A DNA stretch of 64,000 bases from NCBI GenBank assembly GCA_000004985.1, contig GG738860.1; one strand, 5' to 3'. Position numbers and translations under genes: made by a program. Numbering within the stretch: the first letter of the stretch is position 1; each line of letters starts with the position of its first letter. This stretch comes from Naegleria gruberi. Taxonomy: Eukaryota. The notes below the pieces were generated by a model that searched no databases, had not been told where the DNA came from, and saw only the letters and a list, made by a program, of their open reading frames with translations. Of this stretch, positions 43,992-46,435 are shown piece after piece.

Positions 43992-46435
43992 TTATGGAGT
44001 GTGTTTAACGACATAGGCTTGCTTCTTGGTGTTTTTGTTTGTTTTTTCTTCAACTGTTTGTTTGGCTTCTTGAGTTTCTTTTAACATGTTAGCAGTTTGA
44101 GTCCAAAGAGCATTTCTATATTGAGGTGGAACTACATCTTTCAACCATTCTCCTTCAATTGAACAAATATCTCTAATATATTGCTTAGTTGTTAAAATCA
44201 TTTGATTGTACAATACACAATCTGGGAATGGGTCTACCAAAACACTGGATGGATGGACTCTGACCTCAATATTATCTGTCACTGTTTTGTACATTCTCTT
44301 GTTTGGAACTCTAACAGCAACATTTATGAAAAATCCAGAGCATAATGCTTTTCTAACCATTGCCAAATCTTTTCCACATGAGGAAATTTCATAATTTAGG
44401 TTCATTAAATAGTCTCTCAATTGTTTTCTGACATCCAATACTTTTGTCATGGATTTGTAATTGATGTAGTGGTCGAAACACCACTTCTTAATATCTTCCT
44501 TGGCACTCTTTTTTACCAAATTGAATTCTCTGAAAGCGTTCAAAAGTGTGAGTTGATCACCTGTTTTAGAGGCAAATTTCATCTTGATTTTGTTTGCTTC
44601 CTCTCTCTTATGATAAGGCGCATAGAAAATAGATTCTACAGAAAGCATTGAAACAATATCCAAAATTTCCTTTGTACATCCAAATTCTGTTGATCTCAAT
44701 AACGAAACAGCAAACATTGGTTCAAGAGGGAATCCAGCCATTTTTACACCTAGTTCAGTAAGATTACCTCTTTCATCAAGAGCACCCAAATTATAAAGTG
44801 TTTCAAGGGATTTTTTGAGAGATTCCTTTGGTGGCTTATCCATAAAATCAAACTTGTGAACCTTTTCAATACCCATAGATTTAAGTTGAAGCACAACAGT
44901 GGAAAGATTGCATCTCAAAATTTCTGGAATTGTAAAATTATCCAAGCTGTGATATGCTTCCTCGGTGTATAATCTGAAACATTTACCACTCGACTCTCTA
45001 CCAGCTCTACCAGATCTTTGTCTAGCTGAGGCCTTAGAAATTGGTGTTAACACCAGAGATTCCATTCCATTCAAAGGATTGAAAGCCTTTGATTTCACAA
45101 AACCTGTATCAATAACAAATCTAATACCATTAATAGTAATAGATGTTTCGGCAATATTGGTTGCCAAAATAACTTTTCTACATCCTGAAGGTGCTGGCTC
45201 GAATACTTCCATTTGTTTCTCTGAAGGTAAAGATGAAAAGATTGGGCAAACCATTAACTTTAAAATTTTGTAAATAAACTATCAATAATATTCAAAAATC
45301 TTACCTTAAGGGCTTCAGGAGGTAACATTTTAGCTTTTTGTTCCAGTAACTTGGCAACTTGTTCAATTTCTTCCTGACCTGTCAAGAATACCAGAATATC
45401 ACCTAATGATTCTCCTGTTGGAGATTGCTCGTCTAAATGGATTTGGAAAGTTGTTGTAATTGCAGCATCGACATAGTCAGATGTTGGTTGTTCAGTATAG
45501 TAAATATCTACAGGAAATTGTCTACCAGAAACGTATAAAATCTTTGCACTGAATTAATTATTTGGATTAAAACATAAAGATGAGAGTTGATGACTTACTT
45601 GTCATAAAATTTAGAAAATGATTGAGCTTCCAAAGTGGCACTCATGATTATTACTTTCAAATCATCTCTTTCTTTCAGTAATCTTTTAACAACTCCGAAA
45701 AGAACATCTATTTAAGAATTATCTCAATAATTTTTTTCATAAAAAACTCACCTGTGTGTAAAGTTCTTTCGTGAGCTTCGTCCAATACAATTACAGAGTA
45801 TTTTTTGAGTAATGGATCAATTTGTGATTCTCTCAAGAGCATACCGTCTGTTAAATATTTAACTTTAGTTTTATGTGGATTAGAAACATCCTCAAAACGA
45901 ATCGTGTAACCAACTTCCTCTCCCAATTTAACATTCATTTCCTCAGAGACACGTCTAGCAATTGAGATTGCAGCAACTCTTCTAGGTTGGGTAATTGCAA
46001 CACATCCCTCTCCACAAATTCCACTTTCATAAATATATTGAGGAATTTCTAAAATAATTAATAAATTAATTATCGAATAAGAAACATACGAGTTGTCTAA
46101 AAATTGTAAACTCATTTGAAAATAAAATTATTTACCTTTCCTGAACCTGTCTCACCGACAACAACTAGAGTTTTATTCTTCCTAATTTCATCAACTAAAG
46201 ATGATTTGGCTTCATAAATTGGTAATAAAGTTTTTTCCTTTTGAATTCTTAAATACTTTTCTTCCGACACTTCCGAAGTCTTTAATTTTTTAGGTGGTGC
46301 AGTTTTTATCACTTTATAACTCTCAGATTGTTGTTGATCTTGACTTTCCAATGATGATGATTTCCTTTTATTTTGTCTCCTATTATTATTATAGCTTTCA
46401 ATGCCACCACCACCACTAAATGGTAATTTTCTCAT
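43992..46435 (-). CDS. DHX33: DEAH-box RNA helicase DHX33-like, six exons including a 7-nt microexon
   Basis: complement(join(43992..45257,45305..45548,45599..45707,45752..46048,46090..46096,46136..46435)); introns 47, 50, 44, 41 and 39 nt. Collinear with human DHX33: [30 protein letters not shown] | TTQ | [10 protein letters not shown]...[22 protein letters not shown]...LTDGMLLRE...[20 protein letters not shown]...IIMSATL...[10 protein letters not shown]...[13 protein letters not shown]...[13 protein letters not shown]...FPLEP.FA (HA2/OB). Walker A only becomes GSGKTTQ when the microexon ACAACTC (46090..46096) is included. Confidence 0.85.

Follow-up and report, generated by a model that had tools for sequence, protein, structure and literature searches.

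In the window analysed here (a stretch of 64,000 nucleotides (nt) from contig GG738860.1 of Naegleria gruberi, assembly GCA_000004985.1, with a G + C content of approximately 33%), an exon of 7 nt, ACAACTC, is very likely spliced into the functional mRNA of a DHX33/Dhr2-type DEAH-box RNA helicase gene, as a constitutive coding exon. This reading is drawn from the genomic sequence and its comparison with related genomes. Removal of the two introns flanking the microexon would join AAG/ACAACTC/AAATT and thereby restore both the reading frame and the invariant GSGK-TTQ-IPQ. The spliced six-exon model comprises 740 codons, and all five of its introns are of the GT-AG type and 39-50 nt in length. 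The gene is read on the minus strand and, in window positions, is arranged as follows:

46136..46435, minus strand: exon 1, 300 nt, translated, with the ATG at 46435-46433 and a phase-0 end
46097..46135, minus strand: intron 1, 39 nt, GT..AG, phase 0 (at the Lys/Thr codon boundary), GTAAAT...TTTACAATTTTTAG (...TTTTTAG)
46090..46096, minus strand: putative microexon ACAACTC, 7 nt, contributing two Thr codons and the first base of the Gln codon to GSGK-TTQ-IPQ
46049..46089, minus strand: intron 2, 41 nt, GT..AG, phase 1 within the Gln codon, GTATGT...TTAATTATTTTAG (...ATTTTAG)
45752..46048, minus strand: exon 3, 297 nt, encoding (Q)IPQYIYE...TQPRRVAA...TDGMLLRE
45708..45751, minus strand: intron 3, 44 nt, phase 1, splitting HT/D just past the DEAH box
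45599..45707, minus strand: exon 4, 109 nt
45549..45598, minus strand: intron 4, 50 nt, phase 2, common to N. fowleri, N. lovaniensis and the metagenomic lineage L007
45305..45548, minus strand: exon 5, 244 nt
45258..45304, minus strand: intron 5, 47 nt, phase 0, common to the same three
43992..45257, minus strand: exon 6, 1266 nt including the TAA stop (43994-43992), covering the helicase C-terminal domain, HA2 and the OB-fold

The microexon lies in the motif I (Walker A) extension of the protein. An earlier note on this DNA, made without database searches, had placed the end of exon 1 at GETGSGK and the start of the next large exon at (x)IPQYIYE, and both boundaries proved exact in sequence and coordinates: exon 1 finishes at 46136 with GTT GTC GGT GAG ACA GGT TCA GGA AAG (VVGETGSGK), and exon 3 starts at 46048 with AAATTCCTCAATAT (sequence after intron 2, AAATTCCTCAATATATTTATGAA). 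The acceptor and donor that it had described around the 7 nt are likewise found at 46096-46090 of the minus strand, as TTTTTAG/ACAACTC/GTATGT, in which the upstream AG and the downstream GT each belong to a plausible spliceosomal intron, and its lengths of 39 and 41 nt for the flanking introns are correct. The complete sequences of these introns are GTAAATAATTTTATTTTCAAATGAGTTTACAATTTTTAG (intron 1, 46135-46097) and GTATGTTTCTTATTCGATAATTAATTTATTAATTATTTTAG (intron 2, 46089-46049); both are short, AT-rich and low in complexity, and YTNAY-like branch point candidates can be read approximately 10 nt 5' of the AG in each.

When the 7 nt are included, the codons run AAG ACA ACT C/AA ATT CCT CAA, giving K-T-T-Q-I-P-Q, so that the rescue of frame and motif postulated from the sequence was borne out. 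The predicted junction 30-mer with the microexon is GGTTCAGGAAAGACAACTCAAATTCCTCAA, and the sequence with the microexon skipped is GGAAAGAAATTCC. Joining exon 1 directly to exon 3 is out of frame, as had been claimed, and leads to a stop after 36 codons, while reading through the introns leads to a stop after 7 codons; the reading frame and the conserved protein sequence thus both depend on inclusion of the microexon.

In principle, GKTTQ could also come from some other junction, canonical or not, that dispenses with a 7-nt exon. One- and two-intron solutions were therefore enumerated with GT, GC or AT donors, AG or AC acceptors and introns of at least 18 nt. Among the 334 splice combinations that kept the frame open, non-canonical sites included, a single one restored GKTTQ, and this was the proposed microexon solution; the other canonical GT-AG solutions either deleted the P-loop (e.g., VVVGET-EIPQ) or translated intron sequence. 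ACAACTC is also the sole match to ACNACNC within the 87-nt interval between exons 1 and 3. Such an alternative junction, in favour of which nothing was found, is thus exceedingly improbable. In the 64-kb window, counting both strands, the pattern AG-ACNACNC-GT occurs once, at the microexon, compared with 0.09 occurrences expected from dinucleotide-preserving shuffles of the window; for the approximately 77 positions of the 87-nt interval, the chance expectation is roughly 5e-5.

The corresponding genomic loci were compared in N. fowleri (L003), N. lovaniensis (L004), Willaertia magna (L005), Acrasis kona (L001) and a heterolobosean from JGI (L002), using an exact spliced-mapping search in which the deposited proteins were fitted to their own genomes so as to end precisely at the annotated gene ends. 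The deposited proteins of N. fowleri (FDP41_005165, XP_044560551.1; CAG4708923.1) and N. lovaniensis (C9374_002349, XP_044550597.1) could be matched exactly to their genomes only by way of a second exon of 7 nt, and the public gene models of both species already contain it. The exon is the same ACAACTC, at the same intron positions, in the same phases (0 and 1) and with the same product, GSGK-TTQ-IPQ. In N. fowleri, the arrangement is GGAAAG/GTATGT...(104 nt)...CACAG/ACAACTC/GTACGT...(60 nt)...GAAAG/AAATTCCA, and in N. lovaniensis it is GGAAAG/GTACGT...(85 nt)...AATAG/ACAACTC/GTACGT...(50 nt)...AAAAG/AAATCCCA. The flanking introns of the sister species (104 and 60 nt; 85 and 50 nt) are thus longer than those of N. 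gruberi (39 and 41 nt). In the comparison with these two species, the 7 nt together with the adjoining AG and GTAYGT form the sole conserved block amid diverged introns. ACAACTC with its flanking AG and GT recurs unchanged in N. fowleri, N. lovaniensis and a second strain of the N. gruberi type (L006, described below), while the introns differ in length and sequence. At least one annotation effort in N. fowleri used Augustus with Trinity transcripts as hints (PMC8296547), a practice that would lend the microexon indirect transcript support in that species.

The selective pressure on the gene bears on whether the locus might be a decaying pseudogene or an assembly error in which the microexon is a coincidence. 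The frameshift in the direct exon join would fit such decay. However, the open reading frame (ORF) is intact across 740 codons with all helicase motifs, and the protein is 86-88% identical between N. gruberi and N. fowleri, whereas the four-fold degenerate sites of the two species are only 39% identical, which is near saturation for their composition (25% in the three-way comparison). This difference between approximately 88% protein identity and 39% four-fold identity indicates, as read from these alignments, that strong purifying selection acts on the gene and that it is no pseudogene. The same structure is seen in an independently assembled metagenome (L006), and the chance expectation, as given above, is roughly 5e-5. 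The pseudogene or assembly-error explanation is thus effectively refuted. As for the microexon itself, both of its synonymous positions (in ACA and ACT) are invariant across the three species, with a chance probability of approximately 0.06. This is a weak hint that the overlapping splice-site contexts may constrain every base of the microexon, and it is too weak for splicing-related constraint to be claimed.

The second strain is represented by a metagenome contig in ENA (L006, k127_402418) that is approximately 99.5% identical to the window across the gene. The two strains have the same microexon and intron 2 sequences; intron 1 of L006 is 40 nt long, with one substitution and a 1-nt insertion, and the differences in exon 1 are two silent substitutions and a 6-nt indel of Asn codons that keeps the frame. 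Within the part of the gene that was compared, the two N. gruberi-type strains are thus separated by a single indel that breaks the frame, and it sits in intron 1, in keeping with a coding exon 1 and a non-coding intron 1. The Asn-codon indel corresponds to a length polymorphism of a poly-Asn tract (NNN versus NNNNN) between the window and L006, at approximately 46393 on the minus strand in exon 1.

A deposited protein, P0128, which covered 100% of the N-terminal query, was considered as a possible transcript product and rejected as a prokaryote-style ORF call. It spans L006 4001-4735 (window approximately 46435-45710), passing through introns 1 and 2 into intron 3, and contains LEIPQ. The 1-nt insertion in intron 1 of L006 opens a read-through frame, from which the gene caller produced this spurious protein; as an intron read-through of a metagenomic contig, P0128 is not RNA evidence. 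It exemplifies how prokaryotic gene callers deposit false eukaryotic proteins from metagenomes. A further ORF from ENA, P0133, is 92% identical to N. gruberi exon 3, reads through intron 3 and carries YRQLVGF just 5' of LEIPQ. This peptide fits the coding sequence TAT AG/A CAA CTC/ GTA GGT, and the match of RQLV to AG/ACAACTC/GTA suggests, at the level of translation, that a further lineage probably carries the same microexon.

The public N. gruberi annotation contains no such exon. The model of strain NEG-M (XP_002678836.1 / EFC46092.1 / UniProt D2VAK5, 'DEXH box helicase'), which was found in the 90% cluster around the N. fowleri protein, is 601 amino acids (aa) long and is an exact suffix of the 740-aa model from Met140 (MNVKLGEEV..., ATG at 45938-45936 in exon 3). 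By this match, the window belongs to NEG-M or to a nearly identical strain, in agreement with its G + C content. Starting at Met140, the public model is short of the 139 N-terminal residues, among them all of exon 1 and the microexon, and with these of the P-loop (motif I) and motif Ia; a motif-less product of automated annotation, as the earlier note had foreseen, is thus what was deposited. When the first 201 residues were used as a query, no N. gruberi protein with exon 1 was found among those deposited.

Could the public RefSeq/JGI model be right, with translation starting at Met140 (45938), a product of 601 aa and non-coding sequence upstream? In its favour, this start is that of the deposited model (XP_002678836.1 / D2VAK5). 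However, a protein beginning there would be without GETGSGKT (motif I) and TQPRRVAA (motif Ia), and in-frame conservation with N. fowleri, N. lovaniensis, Willaertia and Acrasis covers exon 1 and the microexon as well as the first 37 codons of exon 3, the C-terminal part of exon 1 being conserved in the first three of these. The strain differences in exon 1 are silent or in-frame only, and the models of the sister species include the N-terminal part. A genuine start at Met140 is therefore highly improbable. On these sequence comparisons, Met140 of XP_002678836.1 is taken as a false start and the public model as N-terminally truncated, an error in the reference annotation.

How two introns so close together could be spliced deserves consideration. 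Introns this short would probably each serve as the unit of recognition (intron definition). Only 7 nt separate the acceptor of intron 1 from the donor of intron 2, and two spliceosomes could not fit there together; since two splice complexes are excluded at this spacing, the introns would be removed one after the other, and whichever of them went first, its removal would embed the 7 nt in an exon of normal size. A similar sequential splicing argument has been made for plant microexons (PMC8831610). As to the protein, the Walker-A threonine has an established role in P-loop NTPases. The first threonine of the microexon is this residue, and skipping causes a frameshift; inclusion would therefore be obligatory for any functional helicase.

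The distribution of the two flanking introns suggests how the microexon may have arisen. The helicase gene of Willaertia has a single intron, AAA ACT ACT C/GTAAGT...(76 nt)...TTGTAG/AA ATT CCA, at the phase-1 Gln-codon site of N. gruberi intron 2. Similarly, L007 (ENA k141_1716960) joined to P0124 has the downstream intron only, GGAAAAACCACAC/GTAAGT...(50 nt)...TTTTAG/AAATTCCA; this sequence is at the level of the genus Naegleria (approximately 89.5% aa identity to both N. gruberi and N. fowleri/N. lovaniensis) and is chimeric, being an assumed join of two contigs. The genes of Acrasis and L002 are intronless. Intron 1 is thus present in N. gruberi, N. fowleri, N. lovaniensis and L006, and absent in Willaertia, L007, Acrasis and L002. 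As the downstream intron occurs in Willaertia and L007 and the upstream intron only in Naegleria clades, the microexon probably arose by the gain of an intron 7 nt upstream of an older one. A new phase-0 intron would have been gained at an AAG/A proto-splice site, 7 nt upstream of the older phase-1 intron, in an ancestor common to the N. gruberi clade and the N. fowleri/N. lovaniensis clade, setting the 7 nt at the end of exon 1 apart as an exon of their own. An alternative on current sampling is that the upstream intron was not gained in Naegleria but lost in L007 and Willaertia. The L007 lineage, which is without the upstream intron, could also inform the rooting of intron gain and loss in the genus.

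The downstream position may have a longer history. A scan of JGI metagenomes returned only distant DEAH helicases (at most 72% identity). In unrelated eukaryotes among them (L009/L012 and L036), a GT..AG intron lies at the phase-1 Gln site of G(K)(S/T)TQ, which implies that this position either is ancient or has been hit recurrently. Uninterrupted GKTTQxPQ was found in 52 of 80 JGI loci, and a few loci share the downstream intron site; this intron-site survey is incomplete, as most of the other loci could not be anchored on motif Ia. N. gruberi and, apparently, the P0133 lineage have intron 3, which N. fowleri, N. lovaniensis, L007 and Willaertia lack; by this comparison it is a second lineage-specific intron difference within the gene.

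Several points weigh against the proposed exon and its history. No transcript-derived protein spanning the microexon junction was present in the searched collections. The donor of intron 1, GTAAAT, is weaker than the gene's other donors, and introns of 39-41 nt are far shorter than the mean of 203 nt given for introns in N. gruberi models, although introns 3 to 5 of the same gene measure 44-50 nt. Both intron definition and the order of splicing are inferences, and the polarity of intron 1 (gain versus loss) is judged from few taxa and the chimeric L007-P0124 sequence.

The weak donor bears in particular on the possibility that the microexon is real and its inclusion is regulated, with a substantial share of skipped or intron-retained isoforms carrying premature stops that tune helicase levels, an explanation compatible with the constitutive exon proposed here. 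Skipping would indeed place a stop 36 codons downstream, and intron retention around plant microexons has been reported to be common (PMC8831610). However, the gene is apparently single-copy and encodes a core helicase of the ribosome-biogenesis type, and the splice sites are conserved; regulated inclusion thus appears unlikely, though less so than a start at Met140.

The 740-aa product contains the Pfam domains DEAD, Helicase_C, HA2_N, HA2_C and OB_NTP_bind above their cut-offs, and no S1 domain. All motifs of the DEAH/RHA (SF2) group are readable: I (GETGSGKT), Ia (TQPRRVAA), Ib (TDGML), II (DEAH), III (SAT), V and VI (QRSGRAGR). The best relatives of solved structure are DHX8, DHX16 and DHX15, with E-values down to approximately 1e-206, and no DHX33 structure was among the PDB matches of the 740-aa model. 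The closest database proteins are those of N. fowleri (86% identity), Willaertia magna (75%) and Acrasis kona (63%). In a neighbour-joining tree, the heterolobosean proteins fell within the DHX33/dhr2/DEAH10 clade, apart from DHX8/prp22 and DHX16; this tree is rough (655 columns, no bootstrap), leaves out DHX15, DHX35 and DHX38, and takes its names from the source annotations. The label 'DHX33' given to the gene from its sequence is thus tenable as far as the grouping with DHX33/Dhr2/DEAH10 is concerned, while orthology to DHX33 is not rigorously proven in a tree of this kind. A DHX33/Dhr2-type DEAH-box RNA helicase is a reasonable assignment for the predicted protein.

The following genes and ORFs lie around the helicase gene:

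41944-43917, minus strand: ABC1 atypical kinase, the downstream neighbour
46758-47579, plus strand: nucleoplasmin-like (NPL) domain protein, the divergent upstream neighbour
39187-41280, minus strand: 697-aa ORF with SAP and leucine-rich-repeat domains

N. fowleri and N. lovaniensis share the gene order NPL - helicase - ABC1 - COX24_C. For the ABC1 and NPL neighbours and for the 697-aa ORF, no exact product was in the protein collection, and exact-product look-ups of P0001, P0002 and P0122 returned no record. As the neighbours' ORF products are not in the collection, their public N. gruberi models may differ from simple ORFs.

Microexons of animal neurons and muscle include the 6-nt exon of cardiac troponin T and the SRRM4-dependent exons of 3-27 nt. 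The N. gruberi exon resembles these in size and in the steric problem of two splice sites a few nt apart. However, animal microexons are usually alternative in-frame cassettes with long flanking introns and dedicated enhancers, whereas the exon described here is 7 nt long (not a multiple of three), frame-obligatory and flanked by minimal introns. Tiny exons missed by annotation have also been documented in animals (PMC7821500).

Plants have conserved exons of 1-15 nt that encode parts of core motifs, and their misannotation is widespread (Yu et al. 2022, PMC8831610; PMC12409088), examples being the 9-nt exon of AP2 and the 1-nt exons of APC11 and VPS55 (PMC8831610). Like the plant microexons, the predicted N. 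gruberi exon is a tiny constitutive coding exon between canonical introns, encodes a piece of a conserved motif, is kept in several species while some relatives lack one or both flanking introns, and is missed by predictors, with N-terminally truncated or altered proteins as the outcome. Unlike the plant cases, it occurs in a heterolobosean amoeboflagellate with very short introns (approximately 40-50 nt) and few introns per gene, and is known here from DNA. A literature search found no relevant paper on microexons in Naegleria.

Unlike the public models of N. fowleri and N. lovaniensis, that of N. gruberi omits the exon; N. gruberi also has the additional intron after the DEAH box. The exon itself was therefore already in the models of the sister species, and in practice the finding corrects the N. 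gruberi reference. A broader proposition is that the microexon is recent in Naegleria, a product of intron insertion next to an ancient phase-1 intron, that all of its nucleotides, both synonymous sites included, are constrained, and that it is the tip of a class of unannotated microexons by which many N. gruberi reference models are truncated or broken; this combination we put forward tentatively, as somewhat more likely to fail than to hold.

Taken together, our analyses indicate that XP_002678836.1 / D2VAK5 should give way to the 740-aa model, as comparative or functional studies that rely on the reference proteome would otherwise mistake this helicase for one devoid of its ATPase motif, and they suggest that a homology-guided, microexon-aware re-annotation of N. 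gruberi would recover further such cases. The understanding of splicing or of helicases is unchanged, and specialists would not be surprised by the exon; nevertheless, it would provide a clean case, beyond plants and animals, of an obligatory exon of fewer than 10 nt between minimal introns, with a reconstructable origin in the placement of a second intron beside an older one.

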